DNA from: Phyllosticta citribraziliensis
Taxonomy: Eukaryota
DNA: 64,000 nt
NCBI RefSeq assembly: GCF_038025025.1
Contig: NW_027117350.1
Coordinates: forward strand, 1 to 64,000
Direction: 5' to 3'
The notes below the pieces were generated by a model. It made no database searches and had not been told where the DNA came from. It saw nothing but the letters and a program-made list of their open reading frames with translations. Positions 8,601 to 38,625 of the stretch are shown in pieces (within the stretch, counting starts at the first letter, position 1; every line of letters begins with the position of its first letter). The position numbers and the translations under genes are program-made.

Positions 8601-8700
8601 AGGTACTCTAGGGGGTAGGAGTATAGGAAGTGGCTTATATTAGTTATATTATAGTAACTTAGAAGGTTTTAGTAAGGGAAATTAAGTATCTAGGTAGTTA
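2640..8700 (-). pseudogene. gag-pol remnant of element D (PR-RT-RNaseH-IN-chromodomain)
   Basis: RT and chromodomain motifs as given for element D. Boundaries are approximate. Confidence 0.8.
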
Positions 8701-9165
8701 GTATTATACTAGATAATTATATTAAGGGATCTATTATATAAATCTAAAGAAAGGTTATTACTACTTATATTATAATAGTTAGGGAAATGAAAGGCTCTAT
8801 AATAGCCTAGTTAGTATAGGTTTAGATCTATAGAGTAGGATTTATAGCTTAATATATAAGAGTAGTAGAAAAGATTAGAAGGTATATATAGAGAAGATAA
8901 ATATCTAAGGGATATATTAAAGGAGGAAGTATTAAATAGTTATTATTAGGTATAGCTAGGTATTAAAGGACTAGTAGATTCCTAGACTAGTAATAGTATT
9001 ATACCTATATTAGGGCCTAGGATCTAGTATAGTAACTACTATTATAGTTACTTAGTTACTATAGTACCTAGTTATTATATACTATCTTTATAACTAGTAG
9101 ATCTATATAGACTAAACCTATAGAGGGTAATTATACTATACTCCTTAATTATACTCTAGGAAGAC

Positions 9166-9350
9166 TGTTATACTAAGGGTGCTTATAGTGTTAAAGGGTA
9201 GACTAGAGTTAATGTATATAGTGTTATAATATATTAAGGAGTAGTAGGGGCTGAAGATATAGGTGCTAGTATAGGTAGGTATACTTATAACCCTAGCTGT
9301 GAAATATATAGTGTCTATAGATTAGCTTATTAGTACTAGTATCTAGCCTA
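9166..9350. repeat. Candidate 3' LTR of element C (right edge uncertain)
   Basis: Starts abruptly with TGTTA at 9166 and is less RIPed than its flanks. No second copy is present in the window to confirm it. Confidence 0.35.
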
Positions 9351-11560
9351 TAATTATCTAGGATTAGCTAGAAGAACTAAGTAGTAAGCTTATAATAATA
9401 GGTAGTAGGGTAGAGCCTTATAACTAATTCTTATAGGCTAGTATACTAATTCTGGTAACCTAAGTGGTATACTTATTAATAAACTCCTATATAGTATATA
9501 AGAGAGCCTATTAGCCTTTAACTATAGGACTCTAAGTAATAGGGTATCTAGGAAGAGCCCTACTAGCTAGATTCCTTATACTAGCCTAGATCTTAGGTAG
9601 ATTAAACTATTATATAAAGGTAAAGATTAACTAATAGGTTAGGGTAAGGAGTAGATTCTAGAGGGACTATAGGCTAGTATTTAAGAGGTTCTATAATTAC
9701 TAAGTAAGTAGTTAAAGTCTTATAGGTAGTTCTTATTACTCTATAGTTATTAAAGTAGACTAGGTTAGATTCTAGGTATAGGAGGATCTTAGTATACTAT
9801 AGATATAGTAGAAGATATATTATATATTTAGATCTAAGTAGCTAGTATAGTAGTAGTAGAAGTAGTATAAAAAGGGGTTTAACTTATAGAATAACCCTTT
9901 TTAGCTACTAATTATAATAATCTAACTAGATATTTATAGTACTAATTTAGGTATAAGAGTTATCCTATTACTTAGGCTATCTATATAGCTAAAGTACCTA
10001 TCCCCTATAACTACCAAGCTTGCTAAGCTTACTCTTAGTATCTAATAGCTATACTAGATCCCTATAGGATCTACTGCTATATAATAGGAGGGATATTAAG
10101 ATAGTAATATTTACTAGGCTCTTCCTTCTAAGGAGGGGACCTCTATTACTTTATAGTACCCTAGATATAGTTACTAGGTAAGTTATAGCTTAGGGCTATA
10201 TTTATAATATTATTAGATAGCCTTACTAAGTTAAGGAGGTCTATTAAATTATTATTAGAACTAGTAAAACTAGTAGCTAGTTTATTTATAAAAAGTACTA
10301 GGTTAATATTATTATTAGCTTAGGTAGTAGATAACTTATTACTAGCCTAGGGGAGAGTTATTATACTAGTACTTAGCTATACTAATAAAGTACTAGTAGC
10401 CTTATTAAGTATTACTCCTATTTTATAAATAGAGTAATAGAAAGCTTTATCTATATCTTTATTAGGACCTATAATTACTACCCTAATAAAATCTCCCTTA
10501 TCTAAGTACTCTCTAAATAAGGTAGTAAACTAGCTAGTATCTATCTTTATAGGGGTATCTATTAGAGAATTATAATAAGTAGCCTATTCTAGTAGTATCT
10601 CTATAAGCTCTAAAGTAATAATAGCTATATAATATAGATATCCTTACTATAGAGACCCTTACTATATTAAGAGGTCTAGGTATAGGTAGGGTATTCTATA
10701 CTTATTATAGACTAGCTAGGTACCTATAACCTTAGGGTTATAAGATAACTTTATAATAGTAATATATTAATTAATATAATAGATTAGCTTACCTAATATA
10801 GTCTAGGTAGCTAACTTTAGTAGTAGAGCCCTATAGCCTCTATCCTTAACTACTAGCTCTAGTAGTATAATCTTAGCTAGCTCTTTCTTAAGAAAATCTA
10901 TATAAATAATACCCCTCTAAGGACCTATAATTTTTATAAAGCTACTAATATATTTTTATAAGCCTACCTTAGTATTATATATACTAATTTTACTATTCTT
11001 ATCTAGATTAAGCTTAGTAAAGTTAAAGTTACTATTAATTATATTTTATATATCCTAGTAATACTTATCTTTATACTACTAGTCCTCCTTTAATAAATTA
11101 TAGTCCCTTTTAAAGATCTAGAAGTCTTAGGCTATATTATAGCTATAACTCTTAAGATTATAGAATAAGGTTCCCTAGTTAATAGTATTATTAATAATTA
11201 TACCTAGCCTAACTAGGCCCTCTTACTATAATTTATAGAAGTTATATAGCTAGTAAATAAAATTATAGTACTTATCTAGGTATTCTCTATAGGATAAGTA
11301 GGTACTAATATAGTCTAGTATTATCTCCTAGTCTCCCTAAATAATAGTACTAGGAATATACTAGTAATAAATAAGCTCCTTTATAGCCCTATAGGGATTA
11401 GCCTTATAGGTATATTAGATAATATTAGTAAAGGAAGCTTTATAAAGATAGATAATATTATAATTAGCTAAGATAATAGTATTATTAGTATCTTTAATAG
11501 TAGTAATATCTATAGTAGGGTTAGTAAGTATATCCTCTATTATAATAGTAAGGGGGAATT
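9350..11560 (-). pseudogene. Extra ORF (ORF3) downstream of pol in element C, unknown product
   Basis: One minus frame reads as protein from ~11520 to ~10300 (e.g. GIIYIDFLKKELAKIILLELVVKDRGYRALLLKLA). A low-complexity C-terminal part follows, with a possible frameshift. Confidence 0.55.
10332..10360. promoter_or_regulatory. 29-bp palindromic site, copy 1 (element C)
   Basis: taactt-atta-ctag-c-ctag-ggga-gagtta. The function is inferred. Confidence 0.6.
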
Positions 11561-11931
11561 ATTATAGGGGTAGTAGTTATAATAGTTAAGTAGTAATTCT
11601 TTAGTAAGAGTACTACCTATACTAGACCTAATTAGGAAAATTCTAAGATATCTTACTATAAGTAAGAGAAATAACTACTTAAGAGTAAAATACTTAATAA
11701 GGAATAGTACTAAATTAATAAGAGGGCTAGCTTATAATTATATATTATATCCTTACTAGCCTAGTAAACTAAATAATAATACTAAAACTCTATTCCTACT
11801 TATAGTCTTAATAAAGAAATATTTTTAGCTTAGGACCTAATAGTTTAGTTATTAGGGTCCTAAAGATTTTTAGGGATATATAAGCTTATAAGTATAGTAT
11901 AGGGTTATTTTATAGCTCCTAATTAGCCTAA

Positions 11932-11960
11932 TAACTATCCCCTAGTCTAGGGGGGAGTTA
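11932..11960. promoter_or_regulatory. 29-bp palindromic site, copy 2 (element C)
   Basis: taacta-tccc-ctag-t-ctag-gggg-gagtta. Confidence 0.6.
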
Positions 11961-12193
11961 TTAGTAGTATACTAAACTATAATTAGTAAATATTACTATT
12001 AGCCTATTAGTACTAAACTTACTATACCCTTATTAATTTAAACTCTCTTAATACTATTACCTCCCTTAAATATATAAACTTTACCTTAAAATACTAAAAC
12101 TCTAAAGATCTAGATATCCTACTTATTTAATTTATCTAGGTTTTTACCTTTACTATCCTAGCTATTATTAATAGCCTTATACTAGTCTAATAC

Positions 12194-12616
12194 TGTCACG
12201 ACTCGCAGATTTCTCATTATGCAGGTGAGGGCTAAAGGCAAACTGCTAGAAAATATATATATATCTTAATTAAATCTAATAAGTTAAAAGAATAAAATAT
12301 AAAAGATACTTACTACTTATATATTTTCTAGTCCTTCCTTTATACTATTCTACCTCTTATCCTTTATATAAGGGTCCTTAGTTATTATTAGGTAAGTTAT
12401 AAAGGTAAGGTGTTAATAGGCTATTGTGTGGTATCTTTCTAAGGCTGTAGTAGCTAGTGCTAGGCTATAGTAGCTAGTGCCAGCCTATAGGTTTTAGCCT
12501 AAGCTATAGTAGGCTGCTGCCTAAGGTGAGGCTCGTGCTTCCTATAACTATATAATGCTAGGTTTGTCCATGCTGGCCCTAGTACTTATATAGGTATATA
12601 TATGCCTATCATGACA
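12194..12616 (-). repeat. 3' LTR of A1 (423 bp)
   Basis: TGTCACG...CATGACA, matching the three other family A LTR copies. Confidence 0.95.
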
Positions 12617-12632
12617 TGCCCCCCCTAAAGAG
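12617..12632 (-). other. Polypurine tract of A1
   Basis: The minus strand reads ...TTTAGGGGGGGCA immediately before the TGTCA of the LTR. Confidence 0.8.
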
Positions 12633-13423
12633 AAGCTGAAATCATAGGAATTAGCAGCTATAGGTACTCGCACAGGCGCAGACTTGTAATATATAATGGC
12701 AGTAATTTGGCAATTTAAGTATTCTATATACATAGTATAATTATCAGTCTAGGTCTACTACTATACTATCTCTTTCTATTACTATCTCTTTCTATTACTA
12801 TCTCTTTTACCGCGCGATCTACAGAAGGTCACTATCTTACTTAGCTATATCTAAAGCTCCCCATTAAAGTACATTATTATCCCAGTCTAATTTAGCTATA
12901 ATCTAGTAAACTAACTGTCACGCGTAAAGGTTCTAATAATTTAAATAATTTATACCCTACTAATAGTAAAGCAGACATTCCTAGCTACCATGTACTTAAT
13001 ACATCTGCTACTTATTATAGTCTAGTCTATTAGGACTCATTACTGTTATACAAGAGTTGTAGTATTAAGTTATTATTATGCAGCATTATTTATAATCCAT
13101 TACAGTTACTACTCACTTAGAGAGCTATTTTAGCCAGCAGTATCTATAAGGACCATCACATAGAGTCCTAAGGTAAGTAAACTTTAATTCTATCTCTAAC
13201 TATTACTAATTATTATCTAGGCTATTAAGTAGTATTATATATCTAGGTTCTACTACTTTATCATCCCATCTTGCTAACTAATACAATTATAGAGGAGGAC
13301 ACTTATATAAAGACTTAGTTAGGCCAGGCTTTACTTATTTAGCTAGGAATAGCTACAGGCTTATCACTTTACCTATAGTATACTACAGTATCAGGTTCTA
13401 CTTAATTAGTGTTATTAGTTGTC

Positions 13424-14316
13424 ATGTAAGGTTTATCATCTATAGCTATATAGCCTGCTACTAACTAGCCTATTATACTACATCGCTGCTGGTTCACTAT
13501 TGCGCAGCCTATTTTAGAGGAAGAAGGTAAAGAGCCTGCTTATACATGCTGTTATTATAATCCTGCAGCTCATTAGGTTCTAGTAGCTAAGTACTTACTA
13601 CCTGCTACTTTATATAATAGTAGCAACAGTAAGATTCACATTACAGCGTTGCTAGTTAGCTCTAATAAGGCACCTATTAAGTAGGACTTTAAGTTGATAC
13701 TTTACATCCCTTATAAGAATATAGAGAGTATCGTGCGAGTAAGTTTATCTTACTAATATAAGGGATTCTTATCTAACTAACTATATAGGCGCACCTTAGT
13801 AGTTCTAAAGTATAAGAGCGCGCTAAGCATATCTTGGCCTTAGGTAACAGCATACCTTACTCATATATTATAGTTTCTACTTAGTAATTTAACTACTTAT
13901 TAGTTAAAACTTAAGCTAGCTTGCGCGATACTTTTCTTATCTAGTATACCAGAATTAATAACCCTATTAGCTGCACTAAGTGTCGCGATAATACTAATAC
14001 TTATATATTTATTAGTTATTACTACCTGCCTAGTTTCTTATAGGGCTGCTGCACTAACTGCCTTTAAGGTACAGGTAACCTTAACTACACTATAAGTAAC
14101 TTAAAGGGTGCCAAGCTGCCTGCTTATTATAAGAGGCATAAAGACAAAATTTATATAGAGGAGTTCTAGAACTTGCGCTACTAAGCTAGGTTAGAGGATT
14201 AAACTAATTAGGCTTTAGCTAAGTAGGACATCCTGCTTAATAAGCTAGAGGATCTAGAGGAGATGGTCTTATATAATAACTATTATAATAAGAAGAAGGG
14301 AAAAGGAAAGAAGTAA
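13424..14316 (+). pseudogene. Antisense spliced gene in A1 encoding a Cys-rich DUF3716-like protein (~260-280 aa), RIP-disrupted
   Basis: Intron 13739-13788 (GTAAGT..CTAAC..TAG) joins two exons in frame, and there is an upstream intron at 13173-13220. The A1/A2 consensus reads AFLIQ.T..NPVSCTKCR......F.S.CHLPGF..GRCTNCL.GTGNLNC and ends KKKGKGKK*. Confidence 0.75.
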
Positions 14317-14499
14317 AGGGTAGAAATTAAAGAAGAGGATAGTAAGGAATAAGTAGTAAAAAGGAGAGACTAGAGAGTAGAAGTTAAGATTAATAGTATT
14401 TATATAAGGGTAGATAGTAAACTAATTAGTCTACTTTCTATATCTTTATAATATTTACTATAGGCCTAAGTAACTTATTTTATTATTACTTTCTATTTT

Positions 14500-17400
14500 A
14501 ATCTATAGTTCTTCTTAGAGGAAGGCAGCCTTCTATTTTTCTAGATTTTTTAGTAGTCCTGCTATGATGGGGTATAATGAGTAGAATTCTTTAATTTTCT
14601 ATAGTGCTCTACTAAAAGAACTTATATTATACTACTAGTTATCTTAGTTATATCTAGTCTATTTAACTTGGTATTAAAGCTTCCTATATAAGACTTGACT
14701 AGCTTAAATATAGTCTACTTCCTACTTAGGCTTATCTTAAATAATCTTAGGTTTAGGTTTAGTATAGTCCTAACTAGGAAGCTGTTCTATTTTGGCCTTA
14801 TATAGCCTGTTAGTATAGAAAAGATTAACTATCTTTATATATAAGGGAAGATTAAGGATATAAGAGGGTCCTTCTATTCCTATAATCTTAAAAGGTCTAG
14901 TATTAGGGAAGTCTAATTTAAGGTTTAGCTGATTAGTAGACCATCTGGTTTTCTTAATATAGATATAATCTCTAACTATAAAGTCTAGCGCGCGACGGTA
15001 TTTATTAGCTTATTAGTATATATACTCTTAGGATTTAAGAATAAGATTCTTTATAAATTTAAAAGCTTCTTATCTTCTCTTTTATAGTGTTTATACTACT
15101 ATGCGAGCTATCTTTTCTAGTTACTAGGGGGTCTCTGTTCTTTATTACTAGTTGTAGTGTATTTAAGGGGAATATCCTAACTTAATCTTAAAAGGTAAAA
15201 GTCTAGTAGCTTTATAGGGAAGTGTTACTTGTGTAAGGTCTATTAATAGTAGAAGATTAGACTAATTATTCTGAAAGTAATTGATAAAAGGTCTTAATCT
15301 TTATATAAGATGCTGATTAATAATCTCTATAATACTATTAGTTTAAGAGTGGTAGGATGAGTTAAAATACTACTCTATACTAGTTAGCTTATATAGTTTA
15401 TTTATAAATGCTGAGATGAACTAAGGGCCTTAGTTAGATAGGATAGACTTAGGGTTTCTATAAATATAGTAGATATGTTTATAAAAGAGTCTAGAGACTC
15501 CTTTAGTATTAATCTTCTTTATATAAGGTAAGCTAAAGGTTCTTTAACTTAACTAGTCTATAATAACTAGGATTGTATTGTAGCCTTTTTAGTTTTTAGG
15601 CATCTCTTTAAAATCTATGGCTAAGTGTTGCTAGGGTTGAGTAGGAATCTCTAGGGGTTATAGAAGGCCTAGGTCTTTATTATAAAACTCTTTTATTTAG
15701 CAGTAAATATGGCATCCTTGCCTGTAAATATTAATTATGTGATTTATAGCTGGCTAGTAGTAATATTACTTAAGGAGTTTTCGCATCTTTATAATACTAG
15801 GATGGGTGGTTATATAGGTAGTATATAAAGTGTTAAGCATTCTCGCGCGGAGGTTATTATAATCTAGTATAAAGAGTATACTATATTATAGTAAAAGACT
15901 ATCCTTTAGTTCCTAACTATTTCTTTATTTAAGGTCCTTTAAGAGGGCTTTCTATCTTTAGAGTTCTAATTTAGAATTTTCCTAGTTTATATGGAGGAGT
16001 TTATTTAAAAATAATACTAGAGGAGGAAGTTCTTATTCTAAAATAGAAAGAGGGATAATAGTCTCTAGTAGGATAAGGTATATCTCTTATATAGCTCTTA
16101 CCTTTTCTTTTTAAGTCTTTAAGTCTTCTTATTTTTAAGTAAGGTAATTAGCGATGATATTTTCCTTTCCTAGTTAATAGGAGAATTATATGTAGAACTC
16201 TATAAAAAACTTAGACTATCTAGCTTGTTATTAATTAAGTTGTTGTTTAGTAGAGTAGTACTCTAATGCCTAATAGTCTATAATTGCAAGAAAAGGTTTT
16301 TTAAGGCTAATAAGTATTAGTCTCTATTCTTCTAGTCTATTCTTAATAGCTAGTAGTTCTTTATCTGAAATTCTATAATGAAGTTCTGCGTCTACTATTA
16401 CCTTAGAGTAGAATGCTACTAGTTTCTAATTGCATGAAGGTTGCTAGAGCTGCATTAAAATGCTAGTAGTAACTCTATTACTTGTATTAGTCTCTATATA
16501 AGTGTTAAGAGTAGGGTTATAATTGGCTAGGAGTATATTACTATATATTAGCTTCTTAAGTTATTAAATTGCCTCTTCTTCTAGGGGTCCTAGTTGTTGC
16601 TATTTTGCCTTAGAGTATAGTTTCTCTAATAGCTAGCTGATTTATCTATAGTTAGGGAGAAATTGTTAGTAGAAATTATAGAAACCTAGGAAGGATTAAA
16701 GAGCTTTAAGGGTTTTTAGTATTAGCTAGTTTTATATAGGTTCTACCTTATCTAGGTCTATTTAAATGCCTTCTATAGAAATGATGTATCTAAGAAACTT
16801 TATATGAGTAACTAAAAACTCGCTCTTCTTTAAATCCACCTATAGTCCTGCTTTTTATAGTCTTACTAGTACTTTTTTTACTTGTTCCTTATGCTCTGCA
16901 GGGTTTTTAGAGATAATAAGCATGTTGTCTATAAAAGCCATAATAAAATTGTCTAAATACTTAAAGAGAACCTGGTTAATGAAACGTTAAAAGGCTATAG
17001 GTCTGTTGCTTAATCTAAATAGTAAGATATGGTATTTAAATAAGCTGTATCTTATATAGAAGGTAGTCTTGTCTTTAGAATCCTTAGTAAGATGAATGTA
17101 GTGGAAAGCTTATTAAATATTAAGCTTAGTATAAATTTTGCCCTTTCTAATGCGCTAAAGCAACTCTATAATAAGAGGAAGGGGGTGTAAATCCTTAGTA
17201 GTTTATTTATTAAGCTATTAGTAGTCTATGTAAAATCTCTATCCCCTACTAGGCTTTTTTACTATAAGAATAGGAGAAGTATAGGTGGTAAAGCTCTTAG
17301 TAATAAAGCCTTTCTAAAGGTTCTTAATAATATACTCTTTTACAGCCTTAAGCTGCTCTAGAGACATTCTATAGAGAGGACTAGGTAGAAGCTCTAGTAG

Positions 17401-17922
17401 ACTATTATATATAAGAGATATTTTATAATTAACCCCCATGTAATATGGTAGTAGCTTATTAGACTCTATTTTAGAAAACACATCTTAAAATTCCTTATAA
17501 GTGGCTAGTAGCTTAGAAGCTAGTAATCCCTTAGTTTCCTTATCTTTAAGAGCTGCTTAAACTTGTATAAGGTTAATAGTGTAGATCTCTATTGGCGTAA
17601 CTTGTATTTTATAAATAGAAAGCTTAAATATATCTTGAGTTTAGAATTCAATTCCCTTAATAACCTGTACTAAGGGAAGGAGGTGTTTATTAAATTTTTT
17701 ATCTCTATAGTCTATATCTACTTGGTATTTTTTCTGCAGTTCTTTACTTTACACAGAGATTTTTAGTAGGTGTAGAAGATGCTAAAAGGACTAGTTGACT
17801 AGTAGCTGTCTCTAGACTAGTTTATATCATTTATAGTCTAGGAGGACGTCGTGCTAGTTAAAAAACTGTTACCTAAGAATCATGTTATTATAGCTAATAT
17901 TACAAATAAAAGCATAAGTAGA
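14500..17922 (-). pseudogene. pol remnant of A1 (partial PR, RT, RNaseH, IN, chromodomain)
   Basis: RT motif YLDNFIMAFIDNMLIIS at ~16910-16960. Chromodomain (de-RIP EWEVDHI..SRV...KLQYQVKWTG) at ~14550-14730. Confidence 0.88.
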
Positions 17923-18335
17923 TGCAGATTTCTTATTATACAGGTAAGGGCTAAAGGCAAACTACTAGAGAATGCGTATATATCTTAATTAAATCTAATA
18001 AGTTAAAAGAATGAAATATAAAAGATACTTACTACCTATATATTTCCTAGTCCTTCCTTTATACTATTCTACCTCTTATCCTTTATATAAGGGTCCTTAG
18101 TTATTATTAGGTGAGTTGTAAAGGTAAGGTGTTAATGGGCTGTTATGTGGTATCTTCCTAAGGCTGCAGTGGCTAGTGCCAGGCTGTAGTGGCTGGTGCC
18201 AGCCTGCAGGTTTCAGCCTAAGCTATAGCGGGCTACTACCTAAGGTGAGGCTCGTGCTTCCTATAACCGCGCGATGCCGGGTTTGTCTGTGCTGGCCCTA
18301 GTGCTCACATAGGCGCGTGTATGCCTATTGTGATA
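17923..18335 (-). repeat. 5' LTR of A1, lacking ~10 bp at its internal edge
   Basis: Matches 12204-12616 and is joined directly to protease-region sequence. Confidence 0.9.
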
Positions 18336-18489
18336 TATACTTACTTAGAATATTATAGGATATATATACCCTTTAGGATCTTAGAGTATATAATCCTAGT
18401 TTTAGGCTAGGGTCTATTTAATAGGTATAATAGGTATAATAGTTAGTCCTACTAGCTCTTACTAGTTCTTAGTAGTAGGTTAATCTATT

Positions 18490-20148
18490 AATAGACTATA
18501 TTAGCTAGATCTTTATCCTTATTAGTAAACTTCTTAAGCCTATCTTCTATAATTAGATTTATAGCCTTCTCTCTACTAAGTTCTTTAAGCTTATAAGTAT
18601 TAGTTTCCCTATTAGCCTTATAGATCTTAAATAGCCCTTTCTAGAAGAAGTAAAGCTTTATATTATACTTATCCTTAAGCTTAGTATAGTAGAGTAGTAC
18701 TTAATTTCCCTTATTAAATCCCTTATCTATTACTTCTCTAACTTATAGATAATAGCTATTAAACTATTCCTTATTCTACTCCTATAAGTAATATACTTAT
18801 AATATAGTCTCCTAGAGTTTCTTATTATATAAGTTAATCTACTTTACTTATAGGGCTAGTAGGTCTCTAGTATTCTTTATATCTTACTATAGTATAAGCT
18901 ACTATATAGGTATCTCTATTTTAATAGGGAGTATATAGTCCCTTCTATATAAGACCTCTATAGAAGTTATTCTAGTTATCCTATAAATTATAGTCTTATT
19001 AGCCTATAGGATACTATAAAAATATAGCCTCTAAGGCTTAGTACCTCTAGTAGATAGCTTAGCTAGTATATTATTAATTTACCTATACCCTCTTTTAACT
19101 ATACTATTTAACTCTAGGTAGTATACTAAAATATTAACCTTAGATATATAATATAGTTCTATAATAAGTTTAGTATAGCTTAGGTTCTTATTATCTCTAT
19201 TTATAATAAGGTATTAAAAGGTACTATAGTAATAAATTAGCTCTTTATATAAGAAGTTAGCTACTAGGGTAGCTTTTAATAAGTATAGGATTTATCCTTT
19301 AACCTAGCTAGAAACTACTTCTTATATATTAATATAGAAACCTCTAGATATATAGATAATATCTATATACTACTTATTATCTAGGATTAGTATCTTAAGG
19401 GATAGGTAAAGGGCCTCCTTATTATATAATAAACTATAAAATATATAGGTCTAATAATCTTAGTATTCTTACTTATACTTAGCCTATAGTCCTTCTTAAA
19501 AGTACTAATTTAAGACTTTCCTAAATATTCCTTCTTTAGTATAATAGCTAAACTTATAGTATAGCTATTATACTATCTATTTTTAAGCTATAGGATTATC
19601 TACTACTTATTTTAATAGTATATTCTTAGATAATTACTAAAATAGGTATTAGTTATAGATCTAGTACCTATAGGCCTTCTATTACTATTTTTAGGCCTCT
19701 AATTATATAACTTTAGGTAAGAGTAGTTTATAGGTAATAAATTTAGCTAGGTCCTTAGATTCTTAGGAGTACTCCTTATATAGTACTCTATATAGAATAA
19801 CCTCTCCTAGTAGGCTAGAGGGGCCTAGTACTAGTATTTAATTAGCTAATATTAACTCTCCCCTAGTCTAGTAGATAGTTAGTAGAAGGTCTATAGAACT
19901 AATTATATATATACTTAGCTATAGGGATAATAGTAGCTTATCTATTTTATCTTCTATCTTTTTTACTTATTTCTATAGGTCTTCCTTATTTAACTCCTTA
20001 AAATTTAGCCTTTTTAATAGAGTATCTACTACCCTATTCTTTATCTTAGTAATATATAGTATCTTAAAATCCTATATAGATAGCTAGCTAAGCTACTACT
20101 TAAGGACTCTACCTATTATAAATTTAGTCCTATTATTTAGGTAGTCTT
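18490..20148 (-). pseudogene. pol 3' part of element C (RNaseH end and integrase with GPY/F-type C-terminus)
   Basis: De-RIP reading GDWVLLY...WKGPFKI...YKLKEL at ~18570-18710. Confidence 0.8.
19853..19881. promoter_or_regulatory. 29-bp palindromic site, copy 3 (element C)
   Basis: taactc-tccc-ctag-t-ctag-taga-tagtta. Confidence 0.6.
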
Positions 20149-20321
20149 TATTATAAGTTTAGTTAGGATATCTTTTCTTAAGTAAGGATTATATTATTAT
20201 TATTTCTATCTTAGCCCTAGGGCCCTACTTATTCTCATCTACTTACTTATACTACTAAGCCTACTAGCTAGTACCTACCTTACTTATCTAAGGTATCCCT
20301 AACTATCTACAGACTATAATA
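20149..20321 (-). repeat. 3' LTR of B1 (173 bp)
   Basis: TATTATAAG...CTATAATA (RIPed TG..CA), matching 31840-32012. Confidence 0.93.
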
Positions 20322-20462
20322 GTAGTAGCTAAAAAAGAAAGTTATCCTTAACTTAGAATTTACTATCCTCCTCTACCTATTAAGAAATATTCCCCTCCTA
20401 GGATAAGTAAAGAAAGAAAAGGAAAATTAGAAAGAAAGAAATAGATCTATACTAGGATATAT

Positions 20463-23390: not shown

Positions 23391-23759
23391 TTAGTAGTAA
23401 TATCCTCCTAGGCCTCCCTTTATTAGGAGATACTTAGGTATACTATATTAGCTCCCTTTATAAGGTAGGTACTAATTTAGTACTCTTTCTTAGTAGTTTA
23501 GGGTTTCTTATCCTTATTCTTTATATTTAGTAGATAACCTTACTACTTTAATACTATAGGGATAGCTATTTCTAGTAGTATATATAGTAGTTTATTATAT
23601 AATAGCTTATCCTATAATAATTTATTATATACCTTAGTAGGTAGTAGCTTATCTATATTATTATTTTCCTTTAGGTCCCTAGGTATAATAGTAGTATATT
23701 AAGGTAGTCCTAATTTCTATTAGGGCCTATACTAGTCTAGCTTTACTATTATCTCTTTA

Positions 23760-26700: not shown

Positions 26701-29700
26701 AGAAGAAAGAGATAGTATCTACTACTAAAATATAGAGATAGCCCTAGATATTAGAGATAATATTAGTAGCTAAAGGAAGTAGCTATAAGTCCTTCTTATT
26801 AATAGTATTAAGGGTTTATATATCTATAACTACTTATCCTTTCTACTCTAGAATCCTATTCTCTCTAGGGACTAGCTTCTATACTATAAATATAGAGAAG
26901 CTAAGATAAGTATCTCTATATACCTATTCTACTTTTCCTTATTTATATATAGGGTTAAGTATAGTATCTTAGAATTTATAGTCCCTTTAAGATATAAGGT
27001 ATAGTCTTTAATATTTAAAATATTTATACTAGCCTAGGATTAATAGTATCTTTATCTAATCCTTTTTAGGAACCTTAATAAATCCCTTTTAATTATAGAA
27101 AAGATCTTAAAACTAATCTATTAGTTTTTAGTATAGTAACTAGATCTTAGGGGTCCTAAATATAGTAATACTATTATTAAGCTTAACCTCCTCTATAATA
27201 GGGATAGTAGGATTTAAACTAGCTAGGCTATATTCTATATCTATAAGGTAGTATACCCTATTAAATTCTATAGTAATAATACTACTTAGTTATATATTCT
27301 AGGAGATTATAAGAGACTAATCTAAGTTATTTCTAGTAATAATTTAGTTTATATCTATACTAGTAACTATAGTATAAAGGGTACCCCCTTTTTATAGGAA
27401 GGGTATAGGATATATAGTTTTATTAGGATAGAACTTATATACTTAGTAAAGGAGATCTAATCCTAGGATTTTAATAAGTAGCTTTACCTAGGACTATAGG
27501 GGTATTATCATATTCTTTATAGTATATATATATTAGTAGATAGGAGTAGAAAATAGCTTAGTTATTATACTAATATTTAGGCCTTCTAGCCCTATATATA
27601 GCTATACTACCTAGTTCTAACTAATATTAATAATTACCCCTTTAGGATATAGGAGGTTATTTCCTATAAGTAGAGGGATATTTAGCTTATTAGTTACTTA
27701 AGTATAATAGGGAAGAAAGCTAAGAGCCTATCCTATCTTAGTTTATCTAGATAAGTAAAGAGGAAGTATTATATAATTAGTATATTCTATTTTATATCCT
27801 ACTTTAGTAATAATTATAGATTTCTTAAGTATTATTACCTTAATATTAAGGAGCTTTTCCTTTAAAAATATTCTATTTACTATTAAGGATAAGGTACCTA
27901 TATTAAGGTACCTAATATCTACTATTCCTATAGGGGTTAGCCTAAAACTAATTTCTATTAATTAATATTTAAGAAATAGAGATAGGTTATCTCCTATACT
28001 AAGTCCTATAAAGGCTATAGATAACTCTAAGATTAGTACCTTTAATTCTATATTAGCTATAGCTTTATCCTTTATCTTTCTATATTTATTATTAACCATA
28101 TTAAGCCCTAATATAATAAGGTAGGCTATCTAGTAATACTATCTTCTACTAAATATAGGAGTACTCTACTTATAGCACCATATTACCTATACTATAAGGC
28201 TAAGAGGAAAGATTAATACCTACTAAAGGGCTATAACTACTAGAGTAGGGATATACTAAGAGGGAATAATATATTACTTAATTTTATTATCCTAATAGCT
28301 TTTAGGTACTAGTTACCTACTAACTAAATAGTACTTTATTTAGGTCCTAAGTTCTTAAGTAGCTTAATACTAGCTTAATTTAAACTATATTTAAAACCTA
28401 TATCCCTTAGGTACTAATATAATTTATATTTAAAAGGGAAGCTTATCTAGTAGCTATTATATACTTTTTAGAGATTAAGTACTACTATATTATTATTAGG
28501 AGTATAGTTAAAAGTATTATCCTAGATAAGTATATATCTATACTAAGAGTAGTAGTTAGCTCCTATTATAATTATAGGCTTACTATTATTTAACTATAGT
28601 TTCTCTTTATTAGTTATAGGTATCTCTATACTAGTATCCTTATTACTTTTAGTATCTTTACTTCCCTTATAGGTATCCTTATACTTACTTTTAGAACTAT
28701 CCTAGGTATAGTATTATATATATATAGTTAGTTTATAGTTATAGTTATAGTTATAGTTATAGTTATAGTAATTCTTAGGCTTTAAGTAGGACCTAGAACT
28801 AGACCCTTTTAGGTTAGGAGTAGGGAGTATACCCTACTTAAGGTAGGTTACCTATTTTATATTATTTAGTCCCCTAGTACTTATATTATACTAGGATACT
28901 AAGTATACTCTATTAGATTAATTATATAGCTAGCTAGTAGTCTATATTAAGGTGTATCCCTCATTCTAGCCTTTAGAGAAGAATACCTTACTAGTAGTAG
29001 TTATATTAAAATATTAGGATAGGTATTCCTAAGTCTACTAGTAACTCTTAATATTCTTAATAAATACTTAGATAATAGTATTTACTATTAGTTTAGGGAT
29101 CTACTACTAGAAATAAGGGTTAATATATATATAGGTATTAGCTAACTAGTTATATATAGTAGGGAAACTAGTAGCTTATCCTAGATATATATAGGTAATA
29201 ATAAAGTCCCTTATACTTTTAGTATAGACCTCTAAGAGCCTAAAGTATACTCTATTTAGTACTTTAATAGCTTTATATTATATTATACTAAAGTCTTTAT
29301 ATAGTAGTAAGGTCTAATTATTAATACTATATCTAGTATATATAAAGGCTTAGTCTTCCTCTATAAGTTAGGAGGTATACTATATATTTAATAATCCTTT
29401 TAGGTACTTCTATAGGTTAGTATAGATTAGATCTACTCTATAGGTAGTATAAGCTATTAAAGTACTATTAATAAACTATTTTATAGTATAGTATAAGACC
29501 TTCCCCTATTTAGTTATACTACCTCTATACCTAATATCTTCCTCCTATAGGTTAGGGTTAAAGTAACTAATATTATCTAGGTAGAAATACTAGGTTATTC
29601 TTCTAATATATAGTCCTAATACCTAGTTATACTCCTTATTATTACCTATACCCTATAGGGGAATAAATTAAAAGGTAATAGATTATTTATCCTCTTCTCT

Positions 29701-30100
29701 ATTCTTAGGAGGAGGAGAGCTTAGTAGGAGTAGCTCCTCTATTTTATACTAGGTATACCTTTTCTAGTATTTCTATCCCTAGTTTTTACTAGAGAAATAA
29801 TTTCCCTCCTATAACTATAGTAGTCTTAATACTACTTAGCCTCTACCTTAGGGTATACTTATTTTAAGTATAGATAGGTATATACTAAGCTTCTTAAGTT
29901 ACTTATTAACCCCCTTATTTATTATAGTAAGGTTTATTATCTATACTTTCTATTATTTAGAGAATATATCTTAGAGTATATCTAGCTTTACTCCTAAAGA
30001 TTCTAGGGTTATAGTAGGCTACTAGATCTCCTTAGTCTAGTCTATAATACTATACTAATTATATATATATAGTAGTATTATATTATATAGGGGTAGCTAG
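23760..30100 (-). pseudogene. gag-pol remnant of B1 with C-terminal chromodomain
   Basis: RT and chromodomain motifs, colinear with B2. Boundaries are approximate. Confidence 0.85.
28738..28767. repeat. (GTTATA)5 microsatellite in B1 gag
   Basis: Read directly; same position in the element as 40745-40846 in B2. Confidence 0.9.
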
Positions 30101-31091
30101 TTATAGTATATATACCTTAGGGGAGGATTCTAGTTTTCTAGTAGCTATTAATAGGAGATAGGAAGACTACTATATAGGTATTAGCTAAAACCTAGACCTA
30201 TACTACTCTAGAAAATATTAGGTAGTTAATTAAAGGGTTAGTAAGAGTAGCCTTAAGGAGGCCTATAATTAGGTAGGAAGGGAGGTTATTTAAATTAGCC
30301 TTTATAAGTATAGCTAGTACCTTTACTAAAATTTAGTAGAATATACTAGTCTTTAAAATTATTATCTATAGAAGAATAGGGACTCTATAGATTATATTCT
30401 AGCTTATTATCTATAAATAGGCTACTAGTATAGGTAGCTAGCTACTTTCCTTTAAAAGGTTTTAGTTAAGAAGTATAAGGGGGTATTACCTACTTATCTT
30501 AGGGTTAATATAGCCTTATACTTATATATATCTATAACCAGAGTTATTAATAGGTATATATAGAAGTAGAGTAATATAAAGAAGATAACTACCCTTAAGT
30601 TAGTATAGATATTAGTAAAATAGGTTATTAAGGTTCTATAGATAGTATAAATTAGGGATAAATTAATATATAGTATAGAGATTTTAATTAAGGTTATCTA
30701 TAAAGTAAGGTAATAGGTATTTATACCTAAGAAGAGGGGGGATCTATTAAGTAGGTAATTAATTAGCCCCTTCCCTATTTAGATATAGTATAATTACTAA
30801 TAGGAGGAGTAGGTCCTAATAGTTTCTAGGTTAACCCTAGTAGAACTTCTAGGGTAATTATAGTAGGCCCTAGTAGTAACTAGGGTACTATCTTAGCTTA
30901 TAGCTAAGAAGGTACTTTAAGGACTATACCTAGGGCTAATACCTCTAGTATAGTAGGATATTCTAGTATAATTAGAGAAAAGTACTAGAATAGATTATAT
31001 AGGAACTAGGATACCCTTAAGCCTATACTTATATTATATTAGCCTACCTCCTTATATAGTATAATTAGGACTAGGTTTAGTAGTAAACCTA

Positions 31092-31181
31092 CTATATTAG
31101 TAGATATTAATATACTTAGTATTATAGTCCTTATACCTATATTAGTAGATATTAGTATACTAGGTATTATAGTCTTTATAC
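31092..31181. repeat. 45-bp tandem duplication in the B1 5' leader
   Basis: ctatattagtagatatta..atac occurs twice, at 31092 and 31137. Confidence 0.8.
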
Positions 31182-31822
31182 CCTTAGCTAGAGCCTCTTC
31201 TATATATTCCTATTTTATAGCTACTAGGTAATTCTCTAGGAATAATTTAATATAAGTAGTATTAACTTATTCTAAGGCTTATTAAAAGGTAGCTTAGTTT
31301 ATACCTCCTATAGAATCCTAGTATACTAGGTAATCTAGGTACCTTTAAGATACTATAGCTTATTAAGTAGATACTCCTATACTACCTAAGGGCTTAAATA
31401 TTTCTATAAGGAGGTTAATATAGGTCCTTACTACTAGGGTAATCTATTTAAGCTATTATTTATATTTACTATAATAAAGGAAGGCCTTAAGCTACTAGGT
31501 AGATAGTATATCCTCTTCTAAAATTAGTATAGTAAACTTATTTATTTAGGGACTATATTATAGACAGTTCCTTATACTAGTACTATATATTAAAGGGAAA
31601 GGTAAGTATAGTAGAAGTAAGGGTCCTACTATAATAATACTAGTACTAGGTTATATAAGAAGGGAGATCCTTACTAGGTACTATATAGAAGTATATTATT
31701 AGCTATTTTAAGGGGATCTTCCTAGGTTTTAGTAGAAGTAGACTTATAGTATTTATATATTAGTAGTAATAAAGGTCCTAGATATAGAGGGGATACTATA
31801 GTAAAAGGAAGTACTATAGTAC

Positions 31823-31834
31823 TTTTAGCTACTA
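31823..31834 (-). other. Putative primer-binding site of B1 (TAGTAGCTAAAA; de-RIP TGGTAGC...)
   Basis: Lies 5 nt downstream of the 5' LTR on the coding strand. Confidence 0.55.
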
Positions 31835-31839
31835 AATAA

Positions 31840-32012
31840 TATTATAAGTTTAGTTAGGACATCTTTTCTTAAGTAAAGATTATATTATTATTATTTCTAT
31901 CTTAGCCCTAGGGCCCTACTTATTCTCATCTACTTACTCATACTACTAAGCCCACTAGCTAGTACCTACCTTACTCACCTAAGGCATCCCTAACCATCCG
32001 CGGACTATAACA
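31840..32012 (-). repeat. 5' LTR of B1 (173 bp)
   Basis: Ends ...GGACTATAACA, followed by the TSD GTCTT. Confidence 0.93.
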
Positions 32013-35000
32013 GTCTTATAGGATATAATAGTCTATTTTAATAAAGAAGTACTATCTAAATAGCTATAGTTTAAATCTAGTAATTATATATATTAGTACT
32101 TAGTATTCTAGCTTTCTAGAGTTATAAAATAATTCTATCCTAGACTAAATACTACTCTTATACCTTACTAGATACCTAGTACTATCCTTTTCTTATATTA
32201 AAACTACTCCCTATCCTATACTACTACTATCTATAGCTATTATAATATCTCCTATAGACTCCTCTCTATATATAATAGATACTAAGGTAGGTACTATTAT
32301 AATAGCTTCCTTAATTTTAGCTATAGCTTTATTATACTTACTTTTCTAAGTAAATAGTATATTCTTCCTTATTAGAGTATATAGTAGTACTACCTTATAT
32401 AAGTACTCCTTAACCTAGTAGTAAAAATAGGTAGTTACTCCTAAGAAGCCCTTTAATAATTTAAGGTCTTAGGAAGTATCCTAATTATTAATCTTACCTA
32501 CTTTAGACTTAGTAGATAGGTATCTAAACTCTCTATATCTAAACCTAATAACCTCTACTTCTAGTATATTAAAGAAGGACTTCTCTTCTAAGATTATAAG
32601 TCTAGCTAGTTCTAGATTCTATAGTATATTATTAATATCCTAGATATACTTAAGTATAAATTACCTAACTCCTATAACTATACTTTCTATATTATTATAT
32701 TAGCTCCTTTACTAGCCTCCTATAATATTATTTATAAAAAGGTTAGCCTTATCTTATTAGTTATCTAGTATATATCTTAGGCTATAAACTACTTATCCTA
32801 GAGAATTAGTTATACCTTAAGAAAGTATAAAGTTATACTAGTATCTCTAGGGGGTAATAAATCTAGTAAGATCCTAATACTTTTTAGTAACTATAAATTA
32901 ATTAAAACTAGAGTATAGGTCTATAAGGGTATATATTATAAGGCCTCTTTAGTACTCTATATAATTATTTATTAGTCCTAGTATACTAGTATCTTAAATA
33001 GTAATATTATTTAGTATTTATAAATTATTAATCTACCTATATATACTATTCTTCTTAGGTAAGACTATCTAGGGATTATAATATTAATTAGAGTAGTACT
33101 TAATAATTCCTATATCTTACTAAGTAGTAAGTAAGTTAAATATATACTATATTTTAGCTTATAAAATATATAATACTCTAACTCTCTAGGCCTTATATAG
33201 TATTATCCTAATAGGGAACCTATATATTACTATTAGCTTAATTTATCCTATTTCTAATAGGTTAAATAAGATAGTACCTTCTCTACTATATAGTATTTCT
33301 AGTATTAGTTCCTACTCTCTTAGCTAGAGGTTATCTCTAGTGATAAGGCTAGTTAACCTTTCCTATATAAGGTATATACCTAGTTAAAAGATAGTAATTC
33401 TTAAATAGAATAAGTAGGTAAATTATCCCTAGCCCTAGAGATCCCTTATTAGTATAGTAGTCTACTTAGTAATTATAGTCTCTTTAGTCTTTTATCCCTT
33501 AATTATATTTAATAACTCTTCCTATAGTATTAAGTTATCTATAGGCTCTATTTTTATACCTTTTTATTTATATACTATATACTAGTATAGGTTTTATTAT
33601 CTAGTAGTATTAAGATACTTAGGAAATATACTATACTAAGATACCTTATAATAAATAATACTCTATTCTCCTATTATATATATAGTTAAAAATATATTAT
33701 CTAATATTAAATTAGTATTTTTAGTATTTTATTTATTTTAATTATATAGGCCTCCTACTAATTAGTATAGTAATTATATACTAATTAGCCCCTAAATTAT
33801 TATACTAGCTAGTTTCCTAGCCCTACTACTTATATACTATTACTACTTTAGATTCTAATAGGACTAATATAGTATATAGTATCTTTAATACCTTTAATAA
33901 ATAGGAATGCCTAGTAGGTAATAATCTCTATATAGTAGTAAGGGTTAATAGGGTAGGTAAATCTTAGCTTAACTACTCTAATAGGTATAGTTTTAAATTT
34001 ACTACCTACTAAGATAATTTAAGGTATTCCTAATATAATAGGGATAGTAGTTTAATTATATACTAGGAAATAAGTATTCTAGGACTAATCTCCTATTTAA
34101 ATAGCTAAACTTAGGATCTATTATTTAATTTTATACTTTAAACTATTTATAAATCCTATAGTTATATTAAAACTATTAGGTAGTATATCTTATACTAGGA
34201 TACTAAGTTTAGCTATAAGGGCCTTAGAAATACTATTTATATTTACTCTAGTATCTACTAGTACTTATACTATATAGCTACTAAAGGATACTAGGATAAA
34301 GGATAATAGGATATAGTAGATAATAAGGCCCTATTATTTAGCTAGTATTATAACCTCTTTATAGGTTATTAGCTTTAGCTTATAGTCTCCTCTAGTAGTT
34401 ATAGAATTCTCCTAACCCTTAGGTAATTTAATACTAAAGTATATCTTATATATTAATAGGTCTATAGGCTTACTATCCTAAAGGGGCTTATTATTAGGCC
34501 TATATAAAATAAAGCTCTAAGTAGGTATATACTTTATAGTATATACTAGGCTTATATATATATAATTAAAAACTCTAGAGATAGTTTTACCCTTAGTAAC
34601 TAATATATTAATTAGTATATTTAAATATATAAAGATCCTATCTAGGAAATAATCTTCTTACTTAAATAGGTAATACTAGGAGAAGTTAAATTCTATAGGC
34701 TTATTAAAGGAGTTAAACTAGTACCCTTTAATATTATCTACTAGTTCTATATATATAGTATATATTAGCTTCTATAGGTCCTCTATTATATATAGGTATT
34801 TATTTAGTACCTATAGGTTATTATAAAGTATTTCTTAGACCTCTTCTATAATCTTAGTACTAATAGGAGTATAAAATAACTTCTATATATTATTATATAG
34901 GTTAAGGATTCCTTTTATATACCTAATAGTCTCCTTATTAAAGATATCTCTATATCTCTAGCTATTTAGACCTAGTTTATACTACTTATAATAGAATAGG

Positions 35001-35743
35001 TCTCTAAATATAATAGTTTTAACCTAGTACTATTTAAGGGGGGCCCCTTTACTAAGTAGCTCTAGCTTATTATTCTCTAATTCCTTAAGTATAATACTTA
35101 GCTTAATTTAAGGGATTTCTTTAATATTAGATATATCCTTATTAGTATCCTTTATAGTTACTCTCTATAGTTTATCTATATTAGGCTCCTAAATAGGCTC
35201 TTTACTAGAGATAATAGGTTCTTTAATATTACTATCTAATAGACTAGTAATAGCTAGTTATCTTAGCTATTAAGGTATATTTACTAGTAGAGTTATATCT
35301 AGGATATCCTTATTAGATATATTCCTAGTCTTATTAGATATTACCTATTTAGCTATATTTTTAACTTATTTATTAATAGCTATTTTATTAATTATAGCTT
35401 ATAGGATTTTAGCTCCTCTTCTCCTAGCTAGCTTCTTTAGCTTCTTTATATATTTTATAATCTTTATTAGGTTTATAAAGATTATATTTCTAAGGGGTAC
35501 TTTAGCCTTAAAATAGTATATACTATATATTATCCCTTTATTATAATAGTAAATCTAATAGAAATAAGGCTAGCTATCCTCTATATTAGCCTAAGTATAG
35601 TTAATCTAAGTATACTAGCTTTAGTCCTAGTTATATTAGTCTTAGTTATATTAGCTATAGTCTAAAGGTATATTATATCCTATATTAATTTATAGTAGGG
35701 GCTAATATCCTTATAGTTCTTTATTTATTATAGATTAAGATAA

Positions 35744-35772
35744 TAACTCTCCCCTAGCCTAGTAAGGAGTTA
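35744..35772. promoter_or_regulatory. 29-bp palindromic site, copy 4 (element C)
   Basis: taactc-tccc-ctag-c-ctag-taag-gagtta. Confidence 0.6.
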
Positions 35773-37201
35773 TTTATTATTCTAGTACTAATAATATTTT
35801 TAGTAAATTATTATTATTTATCTATCTTTAATATTATAAGTACTTCTTAATATCTAGCTATTTATTCCTCTTATAAGTTAATATTAGCTAGCTATTAAAG
35901 TCCTAGATATATCTATTTTAACTAATAGATATAAGGCTAGTATATATAAATAGTAATAGAATAGGATAACTCCTAACTATATAGCCTATCTTATTATAAC
36001 TCTAATACTCTCCTATTCCTATACTTTAGTTTATATTTAAACTAGTAGGTCTAGCCTAGTTATAGGAGTTAGGGTTATATTAAGGTTAGCTTATAGGAGC
36101 TATCCTAGATAGTAGTAGCCTTATTAGTAAAAGACTAGAATCTATTTATAGAGTATATTATCCTAGTAGTAGTATATACTATCTAGCTAGCTAGCTAGTT
36201 CTAATAGAGCTATTATAGGGAAATAATAACTAGGTAACCCTTATATATAGGTCCCTACTATTTATAATATACCTATACTTCTTACTATCTATAAGCTATT
36301 TATAGATATAGCTAGTAGCCTCCTAGATTAATTTAATATATATCTTAGCTAGCTTATCTACTAGGTCTTTAACTATAGTATTATTACTCTTTATTAAAGG
36401 GGTCCTAGTCTTAGAGGTTAATTATCTACTTAAAGCTATAATTATAGAGGAAGAGCTATTAGAGGATAATACTATAAGTAGTAGAGGAGACCTTAGAAGG
36501 TATCCTCTTCCTACTAGTATAGGGTCTATAATATAGTCTAATCTCTTAATATAGTATATAACTATATTTATAACCTTTAGTAAGTCTATAGAGTATAAGG
36601 CTATATACTATTTATATTCTAGCTAGGCCTTAATATATAACTAGAGATACTAAATATTCCTAGCTCTATAGGCTAAATACCCCTTTTATAAGAACCTTAT
36701 TTATATATCTATATATAGGGTATTTAGGAACTATATCTCTTATAGGCTTTTATTAATATATTCTTCTTCTACTACCTTATTACTAAGTATCCTATAAAGT
36801 CTAAAGAACTTATCTACCTTAAAGGGGTAATAGAGGTCCTTATATCTCTTAGCTAAGTTCTTAATATAGCTCTAGTTCCTACTAATTATACTAGTATCTT
36901 AGTTCTTATATTATACTAGTATCTAGACTTTTAGACCTTCCTAGTCTCTAGTCTAGAACTTAATAGTATAGTAGATTTCTAGGCTAATTAGGGTTTTATA
37001 ATATTAAACTAGCTTTAATATAAATTCTTCTAGGAGACTCCTAGCTATAGTATAGAAGTATTTATATATCTCTAGGAATAATAATATATTATCTCCCCTA
37101 AATTATAGCCTTTACTTTAGTACTAGTATCTAGCTTATTAGGATTATCTATATTAGAGAAGCTATTCTTATATAGTATTAATTAGCTTTTATTAGTATTA
37201 A

Positions 37202-37230
37202 TAACTCCCTACTAGACTAGGGGAGAGTTA
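37202..37230. promoter_or_regulatory. 29-bp palindromic site, copy 5 (element C)
   Basis: taactc-ccta-ctag-a-ctag-ggga-gagtta. Confidence 0.6.
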
Positions 37231-38607: not shown

Positions 38608-38625
38608 TGCTGGCTAGTAGTACCA
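38608..38625 (-). other. Candidate PBS of element C (TGGTACTACTAGCCAGCA)
   Basis: A TGG-starting sequence at the exact 5' end of the C remnant. The cognate tRNA was not identified. Confidence 0.3.

Follow-up and report, generated by a model that had tools for sequence, protein, structure and literature searches.

Within a 64,000-nucleotide (nt) stretch of DNA from the fungus Phyllosticta citribraziliensis (contig NW_027117350.1, positions 1 to 64,000; hereafter the window), a minus-strand Ty3/Gypsy (Metaviridae) retrotransposon, here called element C, carries five dispersed copies of a 29-bp near-palindrome, and relatives of this element in metagenome contigs carry palindromes of their own. 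The host of all five copies is saturated with repeat-induced point mutation (RIP). We favour the reading that the copies are cis-acting modules of family C which predate its inactivation by RIP, and that a symmetric, sequence-specific factor would recognise them on the DNA of the element itself; we place the probability of this reading at roughly 0.4. An earlier note, made from the letters of this DNA alone, had proposed an element-specific binding-site system around these copies, and that proposal is supported here as a working model. The finding is real and more general than first seen.

The pattern TAACTH-N4-CTAG-N-CTAG-N4-DAGTTA matched the window exactly at 10332..10360, 11932..11960, 19853..19881, 35744..35772 and 37202..37230 (no strand assigned), confirming the five copies of the earlier note, and gave 0 matches in every one of 100 dinucleotide-preserving shuffles of the window. 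A RIP-degenerate form of the pattern with up to three mismatches recovered the same five sites only (0.03 expected in the window), and a looser pattern with two mismatches added three AT-rich, chance-like matches (1.96 expected) and no further full copy. Each copy has at least one arm of the form CTAGGGG[A/G]GAGTTA (four arms exact, two arms with one mismatch). The other arm, in four of the five copies, reads CTAG-TA-[GGGA, or GGGA with one to three changed bases]-GTTA, with the GGGA block displaced by 2 nt. What repeats is thus a near-palindrome that falls short of perfect symmetry and has a constant asymmetry inside it. This asymmetry points one way at 10332 and 37202 (at 10332, the TA-type arm is on the left and the G arm on the right of the plus strand) and the opposite way at 19853 and 35744, and both arms of the 11932 copy are of the G type. 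The symmetry reaches into the flanks, as AA...TT in three and A...T in four of the five copies. Past this A/T extension the flanks of the five copies show no kinship, indicating that the copies are not fragments of a longer repeat.

The copies are tied to their host element. All five lie inside the pieces of element C, which make up 12,117 nt or 18.9% of the window (P = 0.00024 under uniform placement), and no full copy was found in the remaining 81%. The earlier view of an element-linked motif that is not a recent duplication of longer sequence is thus borne out, as its flanks are unrelated. The companion claim, that the motif is lacking from the other elements of the window (A, B, D and E), is right for full copies and needs amendment for half sites: a lone 14-nt half site, TAACTATCCCCTAG, lies at 62570..62583 on the minus strand of E, itself a minus-strand Gypsy element, and is identical to the left arm of the 11932 copy, without a proper second arm. 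A weaker half site with two mismatches is found at 61592.

The window, at 24-33% GC, consists of nested LTR (long terminal repeat) elements, element C among them. RIP is usually called at a TpA/ApT ratio above about 0.89 and a (CpA+TpG)/(ApC+GpT) ratio below about 1.03; the two values are 1.79 and 0.02 in C, where only 26 CpA/TpG are left in 12.1 kb, and 1.79 and 0.13 in the window as a whole. TGA is absent from every minus-strand frame of C and is useless there as a frame marker. The element is present in three minus-strand pieces. Its 5' piece (32018..38625; placed by Pfam, phmmer, tblastn and a frame model) holds a gag-like region, a protease-bearing frame (about 35512-33729) and the reverse transcriptase (RT)-RNase H region (about 33575-32019). 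The middle piece (18336..20148; tblastn of the homologues P0001, P0004, P0005 and P0011) holds the end of RNase H, a linker and the integrase (about 20140-18494). The 3' piece (8498..12193; frame model, 3' limit uncertain) holds the pol tail (12186-12022), a spacer, a stretch resembling a third open reading frame (ORF3; 11558-10194) and a stretch devoid of coding signal. The pieces are separated by two later nested LTR elements: B (20149..32012, plus strand, with 175-bp LTRs and the target duplication GTCTT), which splits the pol gene, and D (12194..18335, pol on the minus strand, with LTRs of about 430 bp, flanked by AATAC and TATAC), which splits the pol tail. Once B is taken out together with its duplication (11,869 nt), the frame of RT-RNase H runs exactly into that of the integrase; the 6147 nt of D and its duplication are divisible by three, and the frame of pol continues at 12186-12022. 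The Ty3/Gypsy domain order of protease, RT, RNase H and integrase is thereby found, with RT-RNase H and integrase in one continuous frame and the protease assigned from the upstream coding frame only. A Pfam match to RT_RNaseH_2 and 4622 phmmer matches (best 2.8e-55) agree with this placement. Pfam placed the ORF3 of C in no family. Neither blastn (word size 7) nor a transition-tolerant local alignment, which did no better than controls, gave a convincing LTR pair for C, and its 5' end may have been cut by a truncated inverted copy of B at 38626.

The copies occupy protein-tolerant or non-coding places in this element. For this analysis we used a 3-periodic triplet frame model trained on five pol stretches of C, D, the second D copy (D') and E, which recovered the long protease-bearing frame absent from its training set. 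The 10332 copy lies inside the 1.36-kb coding-periodic, ORF3-like stretch downstream of pol; the 11932 copy lies at the point where the pol-frame coding signal stops; the 19853 copy falls within the variable stretch that links RNase H to integrase, where the homologue P0004 has a gap of 33 residues; the 35744 copy is flanked by the gag-like stretch and the protease-bearing frame, and coding periodicity around it is weak and not clear; and the 37202 copy lies in a coding-periodic stretch upstream of the protease that is gag by position only, given that a relaxed tblastn search with 153 proteins for gag homology returned noise only. The locations first given for the copies (ORF3, the pol-ORF3 spacer, pol and gag) were therefore broadly right. 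The model kept the same frame on either side of the 10332 copy ((64000-p)%3=2), the 19853 copy (frame 0) and the 37202 copy (frame 2), and tblastn with P0004 gave a single one-frame segment pair from 20140 to 18527 across the 19853 copy. Since the frame is kept across them, the copies are not frame-breaking insertions of 29 nt; they belong to the original sequence or were added in lengths divisible by three. A frame change at 37202 that would fit a 29-nt insertion had appeared under a single-nucleotide periodicity model and was rejected, as the triplet model puts the changes at about 37331 and about 37078, with the palindrome within one frame.

Short public-run contigs of four other organisms, 90-99% alike, cover the 32015-38625 piece. 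Among the contigs listed, three end or begin inside palindromes (X3 record 14 ends at 35764, X6 record 21 begins at 35746 and X1 ends at 37209), and 0 of the 12 listed events in which sequence is left out remove a palindrome (16 more events and 856 more pieces exist). These contigs are consistent with palindromes being present elsewhere, at the same locus or in other copies, and prove little. Contig breaks inside a near-palindrome of about word length are the expected behaviour of word-graph assemblers, and palindromic modules may be under-represented in short-read assemblies.

Relatives of C without RIP extended the finding. An alignment of ten pol homologues led to 80 related loci in metagenome contigs (577 kb in total, GC 37-59%), which are not RIPed; the relatives with palindromes have a normal RIP index (1.10-1.36 vs. 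0.02 in C). The C motif, including its RIP-reversible forms, had 0 matches in the 80 loci, and TAACT-N5-CTAG-N-CTAG-GGGRGAGTTA had 0 matches in the metagenome scan. The motif is lineage-specific, and several of the relatives hold palindromes of their own, as the earlier note had asked of related families. The C pol scored much alike against all the loci (160-215 bits, for the RT-RNase H portion only), and no nearest relative could be named.

The relative that appears closest to C in form, not by sequence, is L009, a 9.8-kb Ty3/Gypsy element whose ORFs are all open: gag-protease, a pol that is in two pieces, and a third ORF of 1249 residues. L009 carries 13 copies of TCTCTTCGTGAGCC-C-GGCTCACGAAGAGA, again 29 bp (14+1+14); the motif gave 25 matches over the two strands (about 13 sites) when 0.34 were expected. 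ORF3 contains six of the sites; the others are distributed over gag, the start of pol, the RNase H-integrase linker, the pol tail, the pol-ORF3 spacer and the sequence just past ORF3. These are the same kinds of places as those of the C copies. The L009 copies fall into sub-variants (…CATCAAGA, …CACCAAGA and …CACGAAGA), and two copies share 45 nt including flanks. Side by side, both elements have gag-protease, pol and a large third ORF, with 29-bp palindromes in gag, the RNase H-integrase linker, the pol tail or spacer and ORF3; they differ in palindrome sequence, in copy number (13 vs. 5), in that L009 is not RIPed and in that no likeness between their ORF3s is detectable.

Shorter palindromes of 8-14 bp recur in four further loci: CTGATCAG in L018 (37 matches vs. 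0.41 expected) and in L021 (26 vs. 0.45), both 8-10 bp long; CTCCGATCGGAG in L030 (21 vs. 0.81); and CCTCTG-NN-CAGAGG in L039 (19 vs. 1.08), of which L040 is a near-identical copy. None of the 26 L021 sites lies in the 3344 nt of flank. A uniform test on the 58 loci of at least 4 kb, which required at least four dispersed copies of a 5+5 palindrome and a count exceeding that of all simulated sequences, identified an enriched palindrome in 8 loci (7 distinct).

Extra ORFs accompany the strongest palindrome signals among the relatives. Pfam found a C48/Ulp1-like protease domain in the extra ORF of L018, L021, L030, L039 and L040. These are exactly 5 of the 58 loci of at least 4 kb, and all are among the eight with enriched palindromes; the loci are interrelated and are not independent counts. 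They are also exactly the loci with GATC or CTG..CAG palindromes, on the theme TC[T/C]G-AT-C[A/G]GA or CTG-NN-CAG. The 1249-residue ORF3 of L009 matched no Pfam family and had no usable match in the ESM atlas. A distant homologue of it, the third ORF of L047 (4520-7810), has a PhyH-like (2-oxoglutarate dioxygenase) Pfam match (2.5e-5; 25.1 bits vs. a cut-off of 22), and the match is weaker in the third ORF of L027 (8638-11595; 0.0073). A tblastn search of the window with the accessory ORFs gave no match, and neither did profile hidden Markov models (HMMs) of the accessory types against six-frame translations of A, E and 49426-51322 at E<=10.

Several comparisons among the relatives bear on selection. 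L018 and L021 have a common motif at 45% pol identity, and only 1 alignment column is shared among their 11 and 7 pol sites; the motif persists while its sites turn over. The L021 form CTC-T-GATC-A-GAG and the L030 form CTC-C-GATC-G-GAG differ at mirrored positions, both arms having changed. Along the L009 lineage, P0157 (86% identity) and P0158 (36%) have the residues encoded by the cores (SPA and EPGS, the latter reduced to PGS at one site) at the same four sites of ORF3, and the linkers around these four sites diverge; the residues are missing in more distant ORF3 homologues. A motif that is kept through site turnover and cores that are kept at 36% identity argue for selection, not for neutral relics. 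As to origin, the C modules probably arose by copy-and-paste of one unit of about 29-33 bp and not by point mutation, because four of the five copies share the internal asymmetry and five point-mutation origins of a 29-bp sequence would be unlikely. Substitution could have produced the short motifs of L018 and L021, which lie within conserved pol sequence and leave its length unchanged.

If the modules are read as DNA, they would be recognition sites on the double-stranded provirus or cDNA. The candidate reader would be symmetric, probably dimeric and sequence-specific, and most likely encoded by the element itself, in the accessory ORF or in the large gag-like ORF; many sites would tag 'self' DNA at many points. 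A plausible purpose would be counter-silencing, given the C48/Ulp1-like (SUMO-protease-like) or dioxygenase-like accessory ORFs of the relatives. The asymmetric variants occur in both orientations (C: 2 vs. 2, plus one symmetric copy; L030: 7 vs. 9; L039: 9 vs. 6), the 8-10-bp palindromes of L018 and L021 leave no room for a hairpin loop, and the L009 hairpins, stable on both strands, have no advantage on the sense strand (4 better, 8 worse and 1 equal relative to antisense). Together, these three observations favour a double-stranded DNA reading. The repeated entity in L009 is moreover a nucleotide sequence, as 10 of the 12 copies mapped lie in ORFs and are read in two frames (FVSPAH-type and LREPGS-type), and the other two lie outside ORFs (5620 and 9448).

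A number of results weigh against this DNA-level reading. Neither Pfam nor the atlas revealed a DNA-binding domain in any accessory or gag-like ORF, and 50 of the 58 loci of at least 4 kb have no enriched palindrome in the uniform test. The ORF3 region of C resembles neither accessory type (no match of the HMMs to six-frame C at E<=10, which under the RIP load is not evidence of absence), and any link from C to the accessory proteins of its relatives would be one of analogy only. Sequence comparison does not bring L009 nearer to C than the remaining loci, the likeness being one of form, and C holds 5 copies, far below its relatives. The central base of the L009 unit is C on the sense strand in 12 of the 13 copies, a strand-specific feature that is easier to reconcile with an RNA role or with copying in one direction than with a symmetric DNA site. 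The conserved EPGS and SPA residues could reflect a peptide function, and a site of 29-33 bp is long for a simple dimer.

One part of the original proposal is not supported, namely that the core could have been CCGG-N-CCGG before RIP, with inverted CGG triplets for Zn2Cys6 proteins. No copy contains CGG or CCG, RIP here removed CpA/TpG, and CTAG from CCGG would need CpG-context changes on both strands. RIP preferentially converts CpA to TpA. Given this preference and the removal of CpA/TpG (index 0.02), CTAG derives most simply from CCAG or CTGG. Pfam also detected no Zn_clus domain in translations of C at E<=0.01, which is a weak test on RIPed sequence.

The strongest competitor, in our view unlikely, places the function in RNA: the self-complementary modules would act as hairpins or intermolecular pairing sites in genomic RNA, for homotypic dimerisation, packaging or Gag binding, and would amount to a family 'barcode'. 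Self-complementary sequences particular to each family would allow the RNAs to be sorted accordingly. Every one of the 13 L009 copies folds as a hairpin (-5.8 to -17.9 kcal/mol), their central C is, as said, strand-specific, and the copy at 8359 departs from the consensus by complementary changes in its two arms (CG to AA, paired with CG to TT). Against this stand the lack of superiority of the sense folds of L009, the asymmetric variants lying in both orientations relative to transcription and the L018 and L021 motifs, which are incapable of forming hairpins alone. For four of the five C copies, folding is not superior to that of shuffles, although damage by RIP may be the cause; the 11932 copy is the only one that is still a good DNA hairpin (-7.2 kcal/mol, z -2.47). 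The arms of the C unit also differ by a 2-nt block shift and not by paired changes. Precedents for palindromes that pair two RNAs include the dimer initiation site of retroviruses, a palindromic sequence through which their RNA dimerises. The PAL sequences of Ty1 are, in the portion of the source available, palindromes that dimerise the genomic RNA, few in number and at its 5' end (PMC6844567). The likeness of both to the present modules is that of self-complementary retroelement sequences able to pair two RNAs; they are few, short and 5', whereas the modules number 5-37 copies along the whole element and show no preference for folding on the sense strand.

A selfish or mechanistic origin without function is improbable. 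A mini palindromic unit would have been copied into tolerant, frame-keeping spots of a master element, by template switching at hairpins during reverse transcription or as a tiny TA-targeting inverted-repeat element, and then simply inherited. The same internal asymmetry in four of the five C copies, in either orientation, suggests one ancestral unit, and the improbability of five separate point-mutation origins, the sub-variants of L009 and its two copies with common flanks fit copying as well. The outer TA could be a target duplication of the Tc1/mariner type, in which case the net gain is 27 nt, a multiple of three. However, no direct repeats were found around the copies, only the palindrome's own TA being a possible target duplication, and no full copy lies outside C, so neither hallmark of a miniature inverted-repeat transposon (a target-site duplication, and copies outside the host element) is found within the window. 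The cores of the L009 lineage, kept at four sites down to 36% protein identity while their linkers diverged, and the L018 and L021 motifs, kept while their positions were not, also argue against mere inheritance. A selfish origin is compatible with a later function of the modules and competes with the DNA-level reading only in the sense of 'no function'.

We consider it very improbable that the unit matters for the peptide it encodes, a short linear peptide in disordered linkers such as a protease processing site, with the DNA symmetry being incidental. Such a role would suit the copies at domain borders in both C and L009 (the RNase H-integrase linker and the pol tail), the EPGS and SPA residues at the same four ORF3 sites in P0157 and P0158, and the recurrence of L-x-E-P-G-S-x-K in ORF3. 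Yet two frames of the same DNA give unrelated peptides, the C copies lie in both orientations, and copies are found outside ORFs in L009 and in weak or non-coding stretches of C (11932 and 35744). The codons are identical at all EPGS sites of L009, and the symmetry spans 29 nt. Peptides predicted from the palindrome were absent from the 153 pol homologues, the only matches being to a conserved RT motif.

Chance or convergence under RIP, in which C-to-T and G-to-A mutation made unrelated sequences alike and symmetric, is close to refuted: CTAG and the terminal TA of TAACT and AGTTA can be derived from CA or TG, which would add apparent symmetry at four dinucleotides per copy, but none of the 100 shuffles contains any match, none of the positions of the G-rich arm, identical in four copies, derives from RIP, the equally RIPed A, B, D and E have no full copy, and the true palindromes of relatives without RIP indicate that the symmetry was not made by RIP.

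Returning to the modules as sites for a factor of the element's own, parallels exist in other systems. In Drosophila gypsy, the Su(Hw) sites are clustered in tandem within the 5' untranslated region and are bound by a host zinc-finger protein; this array likewise places many copies of a protein-binding motif in a Ty3/Gypsy element, and differs in being neither palindromic nor dispersed in ORFs. Rickettsia palindromic elements, 100-150 bp long, lie in frame within protein-coding genes, genome-wide and over many genes; short palindromic units in frame at protein-tolerant places are common to both cases, and the difference is that here the units are 29-33 bp long and belong to one retrotransposon lineage. 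The nearest system in logic, membership of which we do not claim, is that of the anti-silencing VANC proteins and VANDAL transposons of Arabidopsis, where, in the part of the source available, a dense motif occurs only in the element's own copies, differs between related elements and is accompanied by accessory ORFs (PMC5735166). A dense motif confined to its own element was likewise seen here, in C within the window and in L021 relative to its flank. The same portion of that source describes the VANC motifs of VANDAL21 (YAGTATTAY) as non-palindromic 9-mers in one orientation, in tandem repeats of non-coding DNA, and in Mutator-like DNA transposons (PMC5735166); here, the motifs are palindromes, dispersed singly and often in coding sequence, in a fungal LTR retrotransposon with a candidate reader only. 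The analogy, already drawn in the earlier note, is reasonable as a claim that the two work alike. Palindromic motifs to which a host remodeller binds have been linked with Magnaporthe retrotransposons, and the part of that paper available does not describe the present feature (PMC11481914). Our full-text literature searches found no description of dispersed palindromes within the coding regions of LTR retrotransposons.

The relatives hold other repeats as well. Palindromes of 28-36 bp are found in both LTRs and just before and after pol in L006 (9-46, 2963-3000, 6388-6425 and 9601-9638), and in both LTRs and flanking pol in L002 (95, 3592, 7539, 11575 and 11644); from these positions, such modules may mark ORF borders. 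Enrichment extends to other short palindromic cores: CGTACG-containing 8-mers occur nine times each in L005 and L003, and TGATCA-containing words ten times in L008. Dispersed non-palindromic 8-mers were observed in L035 (CGCTCAGA, ten copies, 8 on the sense strand) and in L016 (CTAGGACA, eight copies, 7 on the sense strand), and these strand-biased words may be a related phenomenon read on one strand.

The surroundings of C within the window showed further features. The B copies at 20149-30865 and 38626-49402, which are 91% identical, enclose the 5' piece of C as a 10.7-kb inverted repeat, and the right-hand copy is truncated at 38626, without about 1.1 kb and one LTR. Both B copies contain a tandem array of the hexamer TATAAC / CTATAA (28733-28762 and 40745-40797), which is longer in the inverted copy. 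The 14-mer TAAGGTAGGTACTA (5 G/C) occurs at 20269, 23461, 31960, 32283 and 46080, that is, in both B LTRs, inside both B copies and once in the RNase H region of C, which is unusually frequent for a G/C-bearing word in the window. The second D copy (51323-59573) aligns to the first only up to 57042; from there to its 3' LTR at 59140 it has different sequence, about 2.1 kb long. RIP is complete in E (59574-64000; 0 CpA/TpG left) and in the second B copy (38626-49425; 4 left), and 314-326 CpA/TpG are left in each D copy (index 0.40-0.56), suggesting that D is less mutated and probably younger.

The cis signals of retrotransposons are usually thought to be confined to the LTRs and the leader. Here, a long, symmetric, element-specific motif is maintained at many points of the element, coding sequence included, and its density in some relatives is 20 to 90 times above chance. 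Such motifs are cheap, testable markers that can be searched for in any fungal repeat library, and the intact L009, L018, L021, L030 and L039 offer un-mutated experimental material, unlike the RIPed copy in the window. If the modules act in RNA, they would represent a new way of sorting genomic RNAs by family. If they are read by a protein, they would form the first system of VANC-like self-recognition described for an LTR retrotransposon, and the first for fungi, and would offer a direct handle on the escape from, or survival under, genome defence. In its widest and still doubtful form, the proposal is that a fungal Ty3/Gypsy lineage keeps a family-specific palindromic 'barcode' along its whole length, in frame where its genes tolerate it, which would be read by a factor of its own beside captured accessory enzymes, with motif and reader co-evolving. 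Were this true, such elements would recognise themselves and act on their own chromatin or nucleic acid, for counter-silencing or for genome sorting during packaging, and leave other repeats untouched.

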